Of a stretch of 64,000 bases of DNA, positions 2,748-42,666 are shown piece after piece. Each line of letters begins with the position of its first letter. The stretch's first letter is position 1. The stretch covers positions 216 through 64,215 of the forward strand of contig CAIJZI010000009.1 of the NCBI GenBank assembly GCA_903825105.1. Direction: 5' to 3'. The translations under genes were made by a program, and so were the position numbers. Source of the DNA: an uncultured bacterium. Lineage in GTDB: Bacteria > Patescibacteriota > Minisyncoccia > Phycocordibacterales > Phycocordibacteraceae. The notes under the pieces were generated by a model, which saw only the letters and a list, made by a program, of their open reading frames with translations, was not told the DNA's origin and did no database searches.

Positions 2748-4364
2748 ATGGCAACGGCAATCGTGACCACCAAGGAGATTATCGCCTCGATGGATCGTTC
2801 GTCCACTGAAGACGCGGCTTTTGTCGAGAAGGCATACGAATTCTCGAAGAAAGCGCACGAGGGCACGCTTCGCTATTCTGGCGATCCTTATTTCATTCAC
2901 CCAGCCGCGACGGCGAAGACACTCGCAGAATACGGCATGGACGCCGTCACAATAGCGGCAGGGCTCTTACACGACACCGTCGAAGATGGCTGCACCACGC
3001 GCGAAGAAGTTGAAAAAGAATTTGGCACTGAAACCCTTTTCCTCGTCGATGGAGTGACGAAGCTTGGTGAACACAAATATCGTGGCGCCGAACGACATGC
3101 AGAATCACTCCGCCGACTTCTTGTTGCGACTGCGAGCGACATTCGTGCACTGGTTGTGAAGCTCGCGGACAGAAAGCATAATCTCCAAACACTCGGGCAT
3201 GTGCCTGAAGAAAAGCGTCGCCGTATTGCACTCGAGACGCTCGAGATCTACGCGCCGATCGCCGATCGCCTTGGTATGGGGAAAATGAAAAGTCAGCTCG
3301 AGGATCTCGCCTTCCCCTTTGTTGATCCAGACTCTGCTGTACACACACAGGAGATGCGGAAGTTAAAGACACAAGAGTCTGAGGCGGGGCTCGCACAAGT
3401 TCAGAAAAAATTGGGGAAAGAGCTCGCGAGCAAAGGGTTAAAAAAATTCAAAACCGATATCAGAATGAAAGGCTTGTGGAGCCTGCACCAGAAATTAAAA
3501 AGAAAGCATGATGACATAAATCTCATTCACGATATCGCTGCGCTCCGTATTGTCGTTTCGACGGTTGAAGACTGCTACACCACGCTTGGCATCGTGCATT
3601 CGCTCTATAAGCCACTGCCGGGAGAGTTTAAAGACTATATCGCCTTCCCGAAGCCAAACGGTTATCAGTCGCTCCACACAACCGTTGTGACGCCAGAGGC
3701 TGGCATCGTAGAGATACAGATTCGCACCGAAGAGATGCATCTGCACGCACAGTTCGGTATCGCGTCGCATATGTCCTATAAACAACTGGGGAAAGATGTG
3801 AATAAATTGAGCTCCGATGCACAAAAAAGTAAATTCTCTTCGCTCTCCTTTTCATGGATTCGCTCTCTCGTGCCGTCGCTTATGAGAATGTCTAAAAAAG
3901 AAAATCACGATGAAAAAGCGCCCGCCAAAATACCGCCCTGGCTCGCTGAGCTCGCAGACGCGCACGCGGCGGTTACCGGTTCAAAAGAATTCGTCGATGG
4001 ATTAAAAGAGGATTTCTTTTCACACCGCGTTTTCGTCTTCACGCCCAATGGTGATGCGGTCGACCTCCCAACAGCATCAACGCCGATTGATTTTGCCTAT
4101 GCGATACACAGTGACCTCGGCAACCACCTCCAAGGCGTTAAAGTAAATGGGAAGCTCGTTTCTTTTGACACACCCCTTGATAACGGCGATGTGGTTGAAA
4201 TAATTCGTCGCGAGAATGCGCGCCCGTCACAAAAGTGGCTCGATATAGCGAAAACCTCGCTCGCTCGTCGGCACATCCGGGCGACCCTTGGTATGACCGA
4301 ACAGTCAAAAAAGCCTATTAAAATAGCGCGAAAAAGAAAAACGAAAAAGAAAGAAGAAAATTAA
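2748..4364 (+). CDS. relA/spoT: Bifunctional (p)ppGpp synthetase/hydrolase, short RelA/SpoT homolog with HD, synthetase and TGS domains and no ACT domain
   Basis: HD motif (IHPAATA...LLHDTVED), RelA/SpoT synthetase core and a TGS-like C-terminus; only 538 aa. Confidence 0.85.
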   Translation: MATAIVTTKEIIASMDRSSTEDAAFVEKAYEFSKKAHEGTLRYSGDPYFIHPAATAKTLAEYGMDAVTIAAGLLHDTVEDGCTTREEVEKEFGTETLFLVDGVTKLGEHKYRGAERHAESLRRLLVATASDIRALVVKLADRKHNLQTLGHVPEEKRRRIALETLEIYAPIADRLGMGKMKSQLEDLAFPFVDPDSAVHTQEMRKLKTQESEAGLAQVQKKLGKELASKGLKKFKTDIRMKGLWSLHQKLKRKHDDINLIHDIAALRIVVSTVEDCYTTLGIVHSLYKPLPGEFKDYIAFPKPNGYQSLHTTVVTPEAGIVEIQIRTEEMHLHAQFGIASHMSYKQLGKDVNKLSSDAQKSKFSSLSFSWIRSLVPSLMRMSKKENHDEKAPAKIPPWLAELADAHAAVTGSKEFVDGLKEDFFSHRVFVFTPNGDAVDLPTASTPIDFAYAIHSDLGNHLQGVKVNGKLVSFDTPLDNGDVVEIIRRENARPSQKWLDIAKTSLARRHIRATLGMTEQSKKPIKIARKRKTKKKEEN

Positions 4365-5356
4365 ACCGTAAAGTTAGTCACTGAATACATCTCGTCATCA
4401 AAAGGCTCGTCGGGAGCCGCGGGAATAATGGGATCAATTTCAGCTTCTGCCCCCTGTGTGTCAGAAGCTTCTTCTGGGGTGTGCTGTTCTTGTGCTGAAG
4501 CATTTTGTGCATTCGCTGTGCGAGCCGCGAGTGCATCGGCGAGCACGGACAGATCTTCTGGCGAGAAGAAGTCGATAAGGAGACGGCCGCCTTCGGCATT
4601 CGTCTCGATAATCACGCGTGTACCAAGTGTCTCGGTAAGCGACTTTTCAATCTCAACCATCTCCGGTGTCTTTCGGTGATACGAGCGCACGCGCTCCTGC
4701 GAGATCGAGCGTGCGATGCGCTCGACGGCGCGCACCGGCAATTTTTTCAAAACAATTTCTTTAAAAAGAGTTTCTAATTCTTCTGGCTTATCATTGAGCG
4801 CGAGCAGAGCGCGCGCGTGACCCTCGCTGATCTCTTTATTCACGACCGCATTCTGCATATGTTCAGGGAGAGAAAGTAGGCGCAATGAATTCGAAACATA
4901 CTCTCGGCTCTTCCCTATTTTTGCCGCGCATTCGGCGTGTGAGATACCAAATTCCTCAATCAGTTTTTTCAGTGCTTTGGCGCGATCGATCGCGTTTAAA
5001 TCTTCGCGCTGGAGATTCTCGATAATCGCGAGCTCAAGCTTCGTGAGGTTACTATCGCCGTGGCGAATCACCACGGGCACCTGCTTCAGCCCCGCGAGCT
5101 TCGACGCGCGAAGACGGCGCTCTCCGGCGATAAGCTCATACAGGCTCTCGAGACCTCCTTCTGGCTTTTCAACATCGGTACGACTCACCACGAGTGGTTG
5201 GAGCACGCCATATTGCCGGATGCTCTCGGCGAGCGAGGTGAGGCCCTCTTCGCTAAATTCGCGCCGCGGCTGATACGGGTTCGGCTGGATCCGCTCTACA
5301 TCAATCCAAAAAACGGAATCATATTTGGTCGGGACATACTTTGCATCTTCGTTCAT
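4361..5356 (-). CDS. parB: Chromosome partitioning protein ParB/Spo0J
   Basis: ParB box LQPLVV...YELIAGERRLRASKLAGL; start moved to internal Met (MNEDAKYVP) because the longer ORF runs into tRNA-Leu. Confidence 0.85.
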   Translation of the reverse strand: MNEDAKYVPTKYDSVFWIDVERIQPNPYQPRREFSEEGLTSLAESIRQYGVLQPLVVSRTDVEKPEGGLESLYELIAGERRLRASKLAGLKQVPVVIRHGDSNLTKLELAIIENLQREDLNAIDRAKALKKLIEEFGISHAECAAKIGKSREYVSNSLRLLSLPEHMQNAVVNKEISEGHARALLALNDKPEELETLFKEIVLKKLPVRAVERIARSISQERVRSYHRKTPEMVEIEKSLTETLGTRVIIETNAEGGRLLIDFFSPEDLSVLADALAARTANAQNASAQEQHTPEEASDTQGAEAEIDPIIPAAPDEPFDDEMYSVTNFTV

Positions 5357-5515: not shown

Positions 5516-6289
5516 TTATTCGATACTGACAAGCTTTTCTTTACCGAGCCCGTGCATTTTGGGAATGTTTATTCCTAACTCTGATTGCCAGAAGTTCTCG
5601 CTCGAGAGCAGTTCTATAATCCACGGCAGATGCCCATCTTGTGAAAAGAGCGCCCCGCCTTTTACCAAAGCGGGATAGAGATATACCAAACAAGTTTTTG
5701 TCGACGAGGCGAGGTCCACATCAATATACCCGACAATCACTGGCGTTTTGAATCCTGGCATCGTCTGATCAAAAAATCCTTTGATAAATTCGCAGTTTTT
5801 TATGCAACCATATTTCTCTACATTTTTCTTAACCTCTTCTAAAGAGCCACAATAACTCCCTTCGGGGAAATACGCGTCGCCTCCGAAGATATTCTTCCCA
5901 TGCGCCTCTTGATGATCGGGTATCCCTTCAAAAGAATCAAAGACGAGAAATTTTCTCCCCGCGATTTCAGCAGCCAAGCTTATTTTAGAAGTGCTCCCGC
6001 CCTTAAAAGAACCCGCTTCTACGATGACGCCATTCTTTTCATGCGGAATGGAAAAAATCTTATGCACGACCTCGAGCATTTCGCCTTCTCGATGCGGACA
6101 ATTTATGAAATATGATATTTTATAAAACCGTAAGATTAAAAATAATTTTTGGCGCAGGCTTATTCGCGTCTCTGGCTTTAATGCGATGAAGGTGATAATT
6201 CTCGGGAAATCATACGGGAGTGCGTTCAGCTTCCGATACAGATACAGCGCCGGCCACGGCATTTTCTTTCTTAAAAAATCTTTCATCAT
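5516..6289 (-). CDS. Class I SAM-dependent O-methyltransferase, TylF/MycF-like
   Basis: FDSFEG motif and overall TylF/MycF-like layout. Confidence 0.55.
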   Translation of the reverse strand: MMKDFLRKKMPWPALYLYRKLNALPYDFPRIITFIALKPETRISLRQKLFLILRFYKISYFINCPHREGEMLEVVHKIFSIPHEKNGVIVEAGSFKGGSTSKISLAAEIAGRKFLVFDSFEGIPDHQEAHGKNIFGGDAYFPEGSYCGSLEEVKKNVEKYGCIKNCEFIKGFFDQTMPGFKTPVIVGYIDVDLASSTKTCLVYLYPALVKGGALFSQDGHLPWIIELLSSENFWQSELGINIPKMHGLGKEKLVSIE

Positions 6290-6957
6290 TTTCGACGGAC
6301 AAGGATAAAAGGCGTCATCTCGTCGTCTTGACCCATCGGATTGTCGAGAAGCACGAGCCGAGCCGTCTTTTTATCAACGGGAGTGCCTTTACTCATCGCT
6401 ATTATTTTTATATTGATATTATTCCCGTCGATAATCACCGCGGGGACACCGAAAGTTTCTTCTATTTTAGAACAGACGACCTCCGGATCTTTGGGGGGCA
6501 AGATGGCGTATTCGGTATACGGGTACATCGCGTCGGGATTAAATCCGTCAATTTCTGAAACGCGATTCCCTGCCACGCGCCAGAAGATGCCTCTGATACC
6601 AATCAATTTTCCCAAAGTGCCCAAGAGTATAGCCGCCACGATTCTCGGAGTACCTGCCATATCGACAGCGACTTGCATCTTTTCTGCGAGTGAAAAGCCG
6701 ATATCGTCGGGATATTTTTTAACAAATTTAACAATGAGTTTCGCCAAAAAGCCCGCTTTAACCGTCGATATGTGGCGCGCATTATTTTGACAAACGGAAA
6801 CCACTTTTTCAGAAATCGCCAGCCAATCACCTTTTTGTATCTGCGGCGCGACCGAGTCGCGTATCGCTTCTAATAAATCATCATTAAAATGGAGCAAACT
6901 GGTCTTAACCGCTTGTCGTTCATAGGTAATGCCGTCGACTTCTTTAAAAGGATTCAT
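6286..6957 (-). CDS. CofE-like (F420-0:gamma-glutamyl ligase family) protein
   Basis: N-terminal GDWLAISEKVVS resembles the CofE GD.VV.SK.VS motif; size and glycine-rich core fit; 4-nt overlap with upstream gene. Confidence 0.4.
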   Translation of the reverse strand: MNPFKEVDGITYERQAVKTSLLHFNDDLLEAIRDSVAPQIQKGDWLAISEKVVSVCQNNARHISTVKAGFLAKLIVKFVKKYPDDIGFSLAEKMQVAVDMAGTPRIVAAILLGTLGKLIGIRGIFWRVAGNRVSEIDGFNPDAMYPYTEYAILPPKDPEVVCSKIEETFGVPAVIIDGNNINIKIIAMSKGTPVDKKTARLVLLDNPMGQDDEMTPFILVRRK

Positions 6958-6995: not shown

Positions 6996-7925
6996 ATGGC
7001 AACACAAATTCTCTGTATAGCCGGTCCCACTGCCTCGGGCAAGTCAGCTCGGGCGGTCGAAGAAGCGCTCATCCGAAGTGGTGAGATTATTTCTGTTGAC
7101 TCGCGACAGGTGTACCGCGGACTCGATATTGGGACAGAAAAAATAACAGCCGAAGAAATGCGTGGGGTGCCGCATCACCTTATCAATATCCGTGAGGTGG
7201 ATGAAAATTATTCTGCTGGCGATTTTGTTAAAGATGCTTCGCGACTGATTGAAGAAATTTATAGTCGCGGTAAATTGCCGATTCTGGTCGGCGGGACACA
7301 TTTTTATTTTGACGCACTCCTTAACGGTTTACCTGACGGCGTCGACGCAAATCCAGAACTCCGCGAAAAATTAGAAAAGGTAACGACAGAAGAATTGTAT
7401 GCGCAGGTCGTCGAACGCGATCCGCGCCGAGCAGAAGAATTGGATCCAAATAATCGCCGTCGACTTATCCGCGCGCTCGAGATTATCGAATCTTTTGGAC
7501 ATGTCCCACCACGTAGCTTACCTACGCCACCGTTTGATCCAAGGTTCAACCTTGGTAAATATAAGCGCTCTTTTAATCCAAGGTTCGACCTTGGAAAATA
7601 TGAGGTGGAATGGACCGTGATTGATCCGCCGAAAGAAGAATTAAGAAAAAGAATTGATGCGCGCCTCGCGGGCGCACTCGATCGCGGACTTATTGAAGAA
7701 GTAAAAAATGTGCGAGAAAAATTTGGCGACGCGCGACTAAACGAGCTCGGTCTCGAATATAAAATCGTCGGCGAATATCTATCCTGCTCCGCCAAGGCTA
7801 CGCAGGACGCAGAAAGTTTTCGGAATGAACTCCTCCGAAAACTTTCTGCGAAGCTCTGGCACTACGCCCGCCGTCAAAAGGCGTGGCTACGCAAATTATC
7901 ACTGAACGCCACGACACCTAAGTAA
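6996..7925 (+). CDS. miaA: tRNA dimethylallyltransferase
   Basis: P-loop ILCIAGPTASGKS and DSRQVYRGLDIGT; carries an internal tandem 13-aa repeat from a palindromic DNA insertion. Confidence 0.9.
   Translation: MATQILCIAGPTASGKSARAVEEALIRSGEIISVDSRQVYRGLDIGTEKITAEEMRGVPHHLINIREVDENYSAGDFVKDASRLIEEIYSRGKLPILVGGTHFYFDALLNGLPDGVDANPELREKLEKVTTEELYAQVVERDPRRAEELDPNNRRRLIRALEIIESFGHVPPRSLPTPPFDPRFNLGKYKRSFNPRFDLGKYEVEWTVIDPPKEELRKRIDARLAGALDRGLIEEVKNVREKFGDARLNELGLEYKIVGEYLSCSAKATQDAESFRNELLRKLSAKLWHYARRQKAWLRKLSLNATTPK
7536..7601. repeat. Tandem 39-nt palindromic repeat (2 copies, CCAAGGTTCRACCTTGG core) inserted in-frame within miaA
   Basis: Seen directly: ccaaggttcaaccttgg (7539-7555) and ccaaggttcgaccttgg (7578-7594); encodes DPRFNLGKYKRSF/NPRFDLGKYEVEW. 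Confidence 0.8.
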
Positions 7926-24994: not shown

Positions 24995-25432
24995 ATGAGC
25001 ACCCAAGGAGTTCTTGTTGACCTGGGGGCGGTAATGACTTATATCGTGTCCCCGACGCGGACTGTTCTCGTAAAGGACATGTCCAAAAAAAATCCGCTGT
25101 TCAAACTCCCAGGCGGAGGAATCGAGGAGGGAGAAGATGTCGTAGCGACCGCCATCCGCGAAGTCGCTGAGGAAACAGGGATCAAACTCTCGCCCTCTGA
25201 AATCGAGTGGTGGTATCCGGAAGAGCGGGAAAACGGTCGCTATCTTCCCCACTTCTGCGTGGCGAGAATCTCGGAAGAGAAACTCGACACCTACACAAAA
25301 ATCGGTGACGAGGATGGGGTGCCGATAAAGGTGGAAGTCTTCGACCGCGCCGAAGTATCCGAGCTCGGAAATGACTCGGTGCTCTCGAAACACCTGCGTC
25401 TCATTCTAGACGCAGAAAGCAAGATTAACTAA
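24995..25432 (+). CDS. NUDIX hydrolase
   Basis: Nudix box GGIEEGEDVVATAIREVAEETGI; start set at the Met with a strong GGAGG RBS. Confidence 0.8.
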   Translation: MSTQGVLVDLGAVMTYIVSPTRTVLVKDMSKKNPLFKLPGGGIEEGEDVVATAIREVAEETGIKLSPSEIEWWYPEERENGRYLPHFCVARISEEKLDTYTKIGDEDGVPIKVEVFDRAEVSELGNDSVLSKHLRLILDAESKIN

Positions 25433-25434
25433 CA

Positions 25435-25485
25435 CAGGCTCGGAATCACCTTAAGTTTAGGTGGCTCCGAGCCTGTTTTCTTTTT
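25435..25485 (+). terminator. Rho-independent terminator
   Basis: 10-bp stem caggctcgga/tccgagcctg followed by TTTTCTTTTT. Confidence 0.75.
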
Positions 25486-25510
25486 CTATTTTTTCTTTTT
25501 CTATTTTCTG

Positions 25511-25583
25511 AGCCACCCCGGAGAATCGGACTCCGGACCTTCGCGTTACGAATGCGATGCTCTACCAACTGAGCTAGGGTGGC
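25511..25583 (-). tRNA. tRNA-Thr(CGT), atypical T-loop TCCGATT
   Basis: Acceptor GCCACCC/GGGTGGC, D-arm GCTCAGTTGGTAGAGC, anticodon loop TTCGTAA; A31:C39 mismatch and C at position 55. Confidence 0.7.
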
Positions 25584-25629
25584 ACAAGAAGAGAATAACA
25601 CACGCTTTCACGAACGAGAATCTTTTTTG

Positions 25630-25882
25630 AGCCGAGAGTCGGGATTGAACCGACGACCTCATCCTTCGCTTATACCTCATCTTCTAAGCCACATAATGAG
25701 GGCTAGACTGTATCTTTTCGCTTTTGAGCGAACCCTTGTCAGTCGTTCGGGCGCTTGGGCGCCACGGTCTTGGCTTGTGGAGCTATTAACCGTTATTCGG
25801 GATTCACGATCCTCTCTCGAGAACCGTGGGCAGGATTTTGCGACCCACCATGGATGTGCTCTACCAACTGAGCTATCTCGGC
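25630..25882 (-). tRNA. tRNA-Thr(GGT) interrupted by a ~180-nt intron in the anticodon loop
   Basis: 5' half GCCGAGA-TA-GCTCAGTTGGTAGAGC-A-CATCC-ATGGT and 3' half AA-GGATG-AGGTC-GTCGG-TTCAATC-CCGAC-TCTCGGC are 180 nt apart; spliced loop is ATGGTAA. Confidence 0.6.
25667..25846 (-). ncRNA. Group I-like self-splicing intron (candidate) inside tRNA-Thr(GGT)
   Basis: 5' exon ends in U and intron ends in G; AAGATACAGTCT resembles the group I S element (AAGATATAGTCC), pairing with an upstream GACTG (R/P7-like). Confidence 0.5.
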
Positions 25883-26063
25883 GAAGTGAGGAAGAAAGCG
25901 TGTATGTCTGCATATACACTTTCTTTCCGAACGAGCCGAGGAAAACTTTTTCGAGTCTTCGAGAAACAAGTTTATCGCGGCAATCATCCTCCTATCGCAC
26001 CATTTGAGTCTACGCTATTTCTCTTCCCTTTTCAAAGCCGACGCTTCGGTCGGCTCTCCGCCT

Positions 26064-26303
26064 TCATACGGCGGAGTACACTAATATACCAATCACTAAT
26101 ATCAAATCGAAGATCACGACGAGGGTGTTGGCGAAGAATAGTTGTTTATCTTTATGAATCGCGCCATAGATCATCCACAAAATGTTGAAGAAGGTAATGA
26201 GCACCCAAGTCATCAGCGAGACGCCAGCAGTGTTTTTTGTAATATAAATATCTCTAATCTGCGGGAAGAGCGACACCGGCCCGATAAAGCCAGCGACATA
26301 CAT
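26064..26303 (-). CDS. SemiSWEET / PQ-loop family small sugar transporter (3 TM)
   Basis: PQ motif (SLFPQIRDI) in TM1 and ~80 aa; start trimmed to the internal Met. Confidence 0.5.
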   Translation of the reverse strand: MYVAGFIGPVSLFPQIRDIYITKNTAGVSLMTWVLITFFNILWMIYGAIHKDKQLFFANTLVVIFDLILVIGILVYSAV

Positions 26304-42535: not shown

Positions 42536-42624
42536 GCCGAGGTGGCGGAATGGTAGACGCACAGGGCTTAAAACCCTGAGAGGTCCTAAAAATCCTCGTG
42601 TGGGTTCGAGTCCCACCCTCGGTA
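42536..42624 (+). tRNA. tRNA-Leu(TAA), type II
   Basis: Anticodon arm CAGGG-CTTAAAA-CCCTG, long variable arm, T-arm GTGGG-TTCGAGT-CCCAC. Confidence 0.85.
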
Positions 42625-42666
42625 CAAGGAAAACAGATATGCCGCGGGCCTGGAGGCTCGCGGCGT

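Follow-up and report, generated by a model that had tools for sequence, protein, structure and literature searches.

The stretch of DNA analysed here (the window; 64 kb of contig CAIJZI010000009.1, from an uncultured bacterium) carries on its minus strand a gene for a threonine transfer RNA, tRNA-Thr(GGU), whose two halves lie 180 nucleotides (nt) apart. The split had been proposed in a preliminary description of the locus, and both the sequence and the intron mode of ARAGORN agree with it: the program reports a single split tRNA, c[25629,25882], whose intron measures 180 nt (coordinates of all features are collected in Table 1). Read on the minus strand, the 5' exon (25882-25847) is GCCGAGA/TA/GCTC/AGTTGGTA/GAGC/A/CATCC/ATGGT, whose last nucleotide, U36, stands directly before the 5' splice site. 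The 3' exon (25666-25630) is AA/GGATG/AGGTC/GTCGG/TTCAATC/CCGAC/TCTCGGC/T, and CCA is not encoded at its end. When the exons are joined at U36|A37, the resulting 73 nt fold into a perfect cloverleaf (-29.4 kcal/mol) with the anticodon loop AUGGUAA, as had been predicted, and ARAGORN calls the product tRNA-Thr(GGT). The fold of the unspliced pre-tRNA is also more stable than those of shuffled sequences (z = -4.2). No further tRNA-Thr(GGU) gene was seen in the window. The insert is very probably a compact group I intron at anticodon-loop position 36/37, belonging to the 'divergent group I introns' of Patescibacteria.

We gathered 228 relatives in which the same tRNA is interrupted at the same site (117 unique genome sequences and 111 metagenome loci); below, loci are numbered with an L and three digits, while P, J and L in the anatomy of the intron denote paired, joining and loop segments. 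Synteny alone yielded one homologue (L006/L007). Genomes, one per species, were searched with a probe of 23 invariant core bases (ACGACTGACAA...AAGATACAGTCT), which matched at least 120 species genomes; among the matches listed, 120 of 122 (120 new loci plus L006/L007) lie inside a split tRNA. The metagenome probe was anchored on P4 and J6/7, with P7 and J8/7 left free. It matched at least 120 loci; in 111 of 120 among the matches listed, the tRNA and the insertion site are those of the window copy, and intron length runs from 160 to 254 nt. Among 80 genome matches listed by name, 63 are named after lineages of the candidate phyla radiation (CPR), nine are bacteria without a lineage name and eight bear other names, namely six 'uncultured Gammaproteobacteria' metagenome-assembled genomes (MAGs), one Pedobacter MAG and the isolate Niastella populi.

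Group I rules predict a U at the end of the 5' exon and a G at the end of the intron; both had been noted at this locus, and both are features of the family. All 119 extracted genome pre-tRNAs (118 relatives and the window copy) have the anticodon GGT, the site 36/37 and the U, and the 5' exon ends in TGGT in 119/119 genome and 111/111 metagenome copies. The intron-terminal G is kept in 116/119 and 108/111 copies, respectively (~97%), and exon 2 begins with AA in 117 of the 119 genome pre-tRNAs.

To describe the structure, 117 distinct precursors were aligned with MAFFT (alignment A2) and a consensus was derived with RNAalifold, the P3 pairs being added by hand as a pseudoknot. Unguided, RNAalifold recovered the four tRNA stems together with P1, P2, P4, P5, P6, P7, P8 and P9. 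Standard pairs occupy 97.2% of the cells of A2 with P3 included, versus 35-44% when the 3' partners are slid by 1-3 columns. Compensatory changes occur in 45 of the 66 pairs, and none of 500 shuffles reaches any of five measures. All five pairs of the anticodon stem, whose strands lie on either side of the intron, show two-sided changes (in 51, 62, 14, 7 and 22 of 117 sequences), with 99.8% of cells paired; in L006 (Kaiserbacteria), where an intron of 235 nt splits this tRNA, an A-U pair of this stem in the window is replaced by G-C on both sides of the intron. The acceptor and T stems likewise carry compensatory changes across the insert.

These changes bear on whether the locus is a dead tRNA gene whose insertion is never removed, either a pseudogene or two unrelated tRNA fragments. 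The compensation across the insert in the acceptor, anticodon and T stems, and the conservation of halves and insert together in hundreds of genomes, both oppose it. Moreover, the published genomes with a Thr intron otherwise have no third Thr isoacceptor: tRNAscan-SE finds only 2 Thr genes in three such genomes (PMC13011429, Table S2), consistent with the split gene supplying their only GGU isoacceptor. We consider a dead gene very improbable.

Within the intron, compensatory changes affect 9/9 alignment pairs of P2, 3/3 of P5, 4/4 of P6 (where the window register is slipped by one relative to the consensus), 4/4 of P8 and 5/5 of P9. All three P3 pairs change on both sides (CCU/AGG, CUC/GAG, UCC/GGA), with 99.7% of cells paired, whereas P4, with 100% of cells paired, hardly varies and has a single compensatory pair; across P3, P4, P5, P6 and P8 pairing stands at 94-100%. 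In P1 the U36.G wobble is kept in 116/117 sequences, and the extension on the intron side, from +1 to +3, covaries (GGG/CCU, AAA/UUU, UAA/.UA). The P2 loop is a GNRA tetraloop in most relatives. J3/4, J4/5, J6/7 and J8/7 are invariant or nearly so. The two motifs named in the preliminary description are where it had placed them: the stretch resembling the group I S element is AAGATACAGTCT at 25716-25705, and GACTG at 25744-25740 is perfectly complementary to its CAGUC as P7. The combined J8/7-P7 element, AAGAUACAGUC, stands where the consensus of the Rfam group I model RF00028 has AAGAUAUAGUC. P3 and P7 cross each other and make up the pseudoknot of group I introns. The layout is tight, with only ACAA between P7 and the 3' strand of P3 and with P8 directly after that strand; L9 is mostly not GNRA.

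Table 1. Positions of the split tRNA gene, its intron and related features (in the window, unless another contig is named)
Feature	Position	Strand	Description
tRNA-Thr(GGU) 5' exon	25847..25882	minus	acceptor 5' strand, D arm, anticodon stem CAUCC, loop AUGGU
Group I intron	25667..25846	minus	180 nt exactly, GGGTCG...TAAGCG; inserted at anticodon-loop 36/37
P1 5' strand	25844..25849	minus	exon G34 G35 U36 and intron G+1 G+2 G+3; partner 25829-25834
P1 3' strand, internal guide sequence	25829..25834	minus	CCU then GCC; G25831 is the U.G wobble partner
P2	25805..25828	minus	10-bp hairpin, GNRA tetraloop GAGA (25818-25815)
P3 5' strand (CCC)	25799..25801	minus	pairs with 25733-25735
P4-P5	25764..25793	minus	P4 ACGGUU/GACCGU around J4/5 AAUA, P5 GCU/AGC, J5/4
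P6 hairpin	25750..25763	minus	GGCGC CCAA GCGCC
J6/7 (CCGAAC segment) and P7 5' strand GACUG (25744-25740)	25740..25749	minus	complementary to 25706-25710
J7/3 (ACAA) and P3 3' strand (GGG)	25733..25739	minus	P3 crosses P7
P8	25717..25732	minus	short plain hairpin UUCGC UCAAAA GCGAA
J8/7 (AAGAUA), P7 3' strand (CAGUC) and U	25705..25716	minus	AAGATACAGTCT; 'S element' of the preliminary description; invariant in genome set
P9 hairpin	25675..25701	minus	CCCUCAU ... AUGAGG
Omega G (intron-terminal G)	25667	minus	directly before 3' splice site
tRNA-Thr(GGU) 3' exon	25630..25666	minus	A37 A38, GGAUG, variable loop, T arm, acceptor 3' strand, discriminator U
Intact tRNA-Thr(CGU)	25510..25583	minus	46 nt downstream of split gene
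Intron copies in L135 (same contig as L268)	6275-6467, 6734-6937, 7564-7750	+	three full-length, 116-138 bits, within 1.5 kb
Intron copies in L282	7459-7651, 7918-8121, 8748-8934		same gene as in L135

Two side observations concern the 3' part of the intron. The segment GAAGAUGAGGU (25675-25690) is almost a repeat of the start of exon 2, GAAGGAUGAGGU (25653-25669), on the minus strand. In the minimum-energy fold of the precursor, the 5' strand of P9 pairs with exon 2 rather than with its P9 partner; covariation favours the P9 pairing.

The loop of P2 and the form of P8 vary together. Among 219 unique introns (L009-L248), 66 of the 74 with a GAAA L2 have a P8 that resembles the 11-nt receptor (GCUAAG...UAUGC), in contrast to only 5 of the 81 with GUAA, GCAA or GCGA, the other 76 having plain helices (Fisher p = 3e-28, uncorrected for relatedness). 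This association indicates a putative tertiary contact between L2 and P8 like that of the Azoarcus intron. We found no mention of such co-variation for the tRNA-Thr intron family of Patescibacteria.

The unspliced gene can be read differently. In intron mode, ARAGORN labels it tRNA-Arg(GCG) with an intron at 34/35 that would lie between ...CCAUG and CGAAGG, and it makes the same call in 37 genome relatives. Such a junction would put a G instead of a U before the 5' splice site and break the conserved U.G pair of P1. In addition, 59 + 53 relatives can be called by ARAGORN only as Thr(GGT), GGT at 34-36 is universal in the relatives, and G1-C72 and C2-G71 are invariant. Position 20 is U, while A20 is typical of tRNA-Arg. 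The error has a precedent, since two of the three published Thr(GGU) introns are called Arg(GCG) 34/35 by ARAGORN, a miscall that was documented and corrected (PMC13011429, Table 1). The chance that the Arg reading is right is accordingly very small.

An element of another kind is an even poorer candidate for the insert. A bulge-helix-bulge intron of the archaeal or eukaryal type, which a protein endonuclease cuts out, usually sits at 37/38 and not at 36/37, and no bulge-helix-bulge motif appears in the predicted or consensus folds; a group II intron would need far more than 180 nt; and, as regards a self-cleaving ribozyme or a small transposon, the window holds no match to an Rfam ribozyme family and the insert has neither terminal repeats nor an open reading frame (ORF). 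We regard this whole group of explanations as exceedingly improbable.

The group I assignment made in the preliminary description is upheld by the comparison of the 228 relatives and by a covariance model (R1) trained on 45 members other than the window copy, which matches 25665-25851(-) over its full length with 170 bits (E 3e-50), its sole match in the window. The check that had been suggested for it, a search with RF00028, gave no match and is a known false negative. RF00028 misses Thr(GGU) 36/37 introns, and the gpI_bact_tRNA model of tFind (Williams 2020) detects them (PMC13011429). As stated in Williams 2020 (bioRxiv 10.1101/2020.01.27.920355), RF00028 has no bacterial sequence among its 12 seeds.

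Several points nevertheless weigh against the assignment. RF00028 has no match at its gathering score in the whole window, nor at E<=10 in the 401 nt of 25560-25960, and on 16 relatives it gives one sub-threshold match only (L074; 22.8 bits versus a gathering score of 50). The alignment in L074 runs through P1, P2, P3, P8, J8/7 and P9 in proper order, and we do not take the miss as a refutation, because the same model fails on published members. P7 (GACUG/CAGUC) consists of 5/5 perfect pairs that are invariant in 117/117 sequences and, among loci obtained with the P7-free probe, in 118/120, and a metagenome search for variants of its last pair (GACTH...DAGTC) returned 0 matches. It is therefore supported by complementarity, conservation and position and not by covariation, as it never varies; such invariance would fit a catalytic site, with G25744 as the presumed G-binding-pair nucleotide. 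A P10 helix can be drawn (5 bp in the window; compatible in ~75-80% of sequences), but it shows no covariation. Finally, L2 is GAGA and P8 is plain in the window copy, which may therefore have a less firm tertiary brace than relatives in which GAAA is combined with a receptor.

The published record places the locus. Nakagawa et al. 2026 reported tRNA-Thr(GGU) introns at 36/37 in three of 95 complete Patescibacteria genomes (PMC13011429, Table 1), one of which is probably L058 (CP011209.1, a complete Wolfebacteria genome). In that paper these introns go by the name 'divergent group I introns', after Castelle et al. 2018 (as cited in PMC13011429). The kind of intron, the host tRNA, the site and the bacterial group are thus already published, the window copy is one more member, and the locus holds nothing qualitatively new in comparison with that work.

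Intron length in the genome set ranges from 158 to 266 nt with a family median of 193-195 nt. The claim that the window intron is compact and among the smallest therefore stands in part: 180 nt is below the median and well above the minimum. The idea of a compact ribozyme applies to the published class and not specially to the window locus, and the novelty it implied was overstated. The window intron is shorter than that of Azoarcus (205 nt); a literature search on the smallest group I intron found nothing usable for a size comparison. Several members illustrate the range. The smallest, L044 5890-6121 (+), has a 158-nt intron in which P9 is wholly absent (CAGUCUAGCC-A-AAAGCG) and the other helices are minimal, and the metagenome set includes members of 160-172 nt. 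Size varies through hairpin extensions in peripheral loops, as in L040 (P1 loop), L017 (P5, P6), L126 (P9) and L006 (P5, P8). No member is long enough for a homing endonuclease gene. A 181-nt member (178.5 bits) interrupts the tRNA-Thr(GGU) of Niastella populi CCTCC AB 208238 (L061 5196-5450 (-), NZ_LWBP01000002.1), according to its record a cultured Bacteroidota isolate and potentially tractable for in vivo splicing work. Beside that tRNA lie a tyrosine-recombinase-like ORF (4264-5331) and a TraG/VirD4-like ORF, as at an integrated island.

Herein, we describe how the intron would be removed. The boundaries, P1-P9, the pseudoknot, the joining segments and the L2-P8 association come from the comparison above; the chemistry is that of established group I introns. 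Transcription probably yields one RNA that holds both the precursor and the downstream tRNA-Thr(CGU). Exon nucleotides G34-G35-U36 would pair with the guide GCC to form P1, with the U36.G wobble at the splice site, while the core would assemble from the P4-P6 and P3-P8 domains, joined via the P3/P7 pseudoknot, and the GNRA loop of P2 would dock on P8. Free guanosine would then bind the P7 pair G25744-C25706 and attack after U36. During step two, the terminal G25667 would take the place of the guanosine and U36 would attack the G|A37 bond. The expected products are the 73-nt tRNA and a free 180-nt intron, and splicing would presumably be required for decoding ACC and ACU.

By analogy, the tRNA-Thr class would be expected to perform these steps by itself. 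Alternatively, the intron may derive from group I without being an autonomous ribozyme, so that splicing in the cell needs a protein helper (an RNA chaperone or a maturase-like protein) or special conditions. At 180 nt, with relatives down to 158 nt that lack P9, it is very small, although the 205-nt Azoarcus intron reportedly self-splices well. Its P8 is without the 11-nt receptor and its core is divergent enough to escape RF00028, yet all elements of the catalytic core and the joining segments are present and near invariant, the L2-P8 contact co-varies across the family, and introns of 158-266 nt are too short to encode a maturase. The Thr class is not among the introns assayed in PMC13011429 and we found no in vitro test of it, whereas other Patescibacteria tRNA introns do self-splice in vitro (PMC13011429). 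On balance, we consider dependence on a helper or on special conditions unlikely.

The same ribozyme family also occurs outside tRNAs, in three of the P4-anchored metagenome matches and in 37/37 matches of a scan of viral contigs (IMG/VR, L249-L285). The model scores of these copies are 53-138 bits, and ARAGORN finds no split tRNA among them. In L249-L285 taken together with L223 52-242 (+) and L248 2002-2207 (-), full-length model matches number 38 and none of them is in a split tRNA; outside tRNAs, the family is common in predicted phages. When the three introns of L135, a predicted viral contig, are removed at U|...G|, a single ORF of 440 amino acids is restored. The homologue of this gene in L252 is without introns at all three of these sites, through which it reads ...FMKDLVYAKNPTFALLPK...; its own intron occupies a fourth site, after ...IAFEG (L252 2276-2471 (+)). 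This presence/absence polymorphism fixes the exact splice boundaries, and intron 1 of L135 follows GCU, not GGU. The restored ORF of L135 gave nothing in sequence searches of PHROGs, Pfam and PDB. Among related proteins, the spliced ORF of L256 matches PHROG 9953, 'major head protein', over the whole profile (E 6e-39), and exon 1 of L250 matches PHROG 9953 with E 5e-48; by sequence, both are clearly major head proteins, and the L252 protein matches the same profile weakly (E 4e-5). The ribozyme family thus interrupts phage major-head-protein genes, with up to three copies per gene.

In these non-tRNA relatives, guide and exon end change in step (GGU/GCC, GCU/GGC, CCGU/GCGG). A rough neighbour-joining tree of 172 model-aligned columns puts 49 tRNA copies in one clade of 50, and the phage copies in it are more diverse than the tRNA copies, which suggests a wider, phage-associated lineage with the tRNA-Thr introns as one of its branches. 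A broader and only tentative proposal, which we hold to be possible but rather doubtful, is that they form one tRNA branch of a larger, as yet unclassified lineage of very compact group I ribozymes (158-210 nt) whose diversity lies mostly in phage major-head-protein genes, which spreads without homing endonucleases by reverse splicing into 3-4-nt guide matches (GGU, GCU, CCGU), and among whose members are the smallest group I introns that self-splice in nature. The data behind it are that tRNA and phage copies share the ribozyme, that phages are hosts, that guide and exon co-vary and that the tRNA copies are nearly monophyletic.

Around the split gene, the window holds genes for a NUDIX hydrolase, PrfB, FtsE, FtsX and CTP synthase. 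Homologues of PrfB with 85-90% identity are named Paceibacterota, Kaiserbacteria or Parcubacteria, and the host is therefore a Kaiserbacteria-like member of Patescibacteria (CPR). The intact tRNA-Thr(CGU) lies next to the split gene, as had been noted earlier, and the spliced tRNA is 74% identical to it, a value that is not above that for some other tRNAs and is non-discriminating. A promoter and terminator scan of 25350-26150 found no terminator and a single weak promoter-like site, 26035-26007(-), an outcome that does not exceed that of shuffled sequences. A look-up of the exact PrfB protein returned no record. Contigs with an identical PrfB of 290 amino acids (L001-L003) end before the position of the split tRNA; at the syntenic loci L004/L005, tRNA-Thr(CGU) is present and the split tRNA was not found. 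In L006, an rve-family transposase pair separates split tRNA-Thr(GGU) from tRNA-Thr(CGU), and tRNA-Met and tRNA-Asp flank a LAGLIDADG_3 ORF (the two insertions are at L006 4035-4911 and 1238-1924); the window has neither at the matching places. In all, the window contains eleven tRNA genes (5427-44166), the split one included, and its tRNA-Leu(UAA) (42536-42625) is uninterrupted, although this tRNA is the classical host of group I introns in bacteria.

For annotation, the gene is easily lost: default ARAGORN and the Rfam tRNA model both fail to call it in the window, and the literature says likewise of tRNAscan-SE. Uncorrected, the genome seems to be without a tRNA-Thr(GGU), which skews completeness estimates and inferences on codon usage, a point already made in the literature. 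In this family, many group I cores of very small size occur naturally and come with abundant comparative data; they could serve as models of minimal ribozymes once self-splicing of the Thr class is shown.

Among known systems, the tRNA-Ile(CAU) intron of Azoarcus sp. BH72, reportedly a 205-nt member of subgroup IC3 at 36/37, is similar in several respects. Both interrupt a bacterial tRNA at this site, take only 3 exon nucleotides into P1, have a P2 GNRA loop that docks (in the Thr family, putatively) on P8, and consist of a minimal P1-P9 without P5abc or P7.1/7.2. The Thr family differs in having P7 as GACUG/CAGUC versus the usual ..GACUA/UAGUC, in being silent to RF00028, in its L9, and in its many shorter members (158-200 nt). 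The anatomy and the strong L2-P8 co-variation fit IC3, yet L9, which docks on P5 in that subgroup, is mostly non-GNRA and PMC13011429 groups the Thr introns with IA, not IC, on a long branch beside the IA introns of Patescibacteria.

The other group I introns in tRNA anticodon loops of Patescibacteria, with which the Thr introns are grouped on their long branch in the tree of PMC13011429, share the phylum and mostly lack homing endonuclease genes. They differ in their site (35/36), in being detectable with RF00028, in their core (AGACUA.../..AUAGUCC), in their length (~230-570 nt) and in that their self-splicing was shown experimentally. The introns of cyanobacterial and plastid tRNA-Leu(UAA) (34/35) and of alpha-proteobacterial tRNA-Arg(CCU) (36/37) have other host tRNAs, belong to IC3 and are detected by standard models; splicing of the Anabaena intron depends on exon pairing in the anticodon stem. 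For phage genes with several introns, orf142 of the Staphylococcus phage Twort, which is said to contain three group I introns, is a precedent, its introns being IA2 and unrelated in sequence to the Thr ribozyme family. The published Patescibacteria tRNA-Thr(GGU) 36/37 introns agree with the window copy in tRNA, site, phylum, size range, failure of RF00028 and ARAGORN miscall, and nothing essential differs. What has changed is the reach of the family, from 3/95 complete genomes (PMC13011429) to no fewer than 120 species genomes plus at least 111 contigs from metagenomes.

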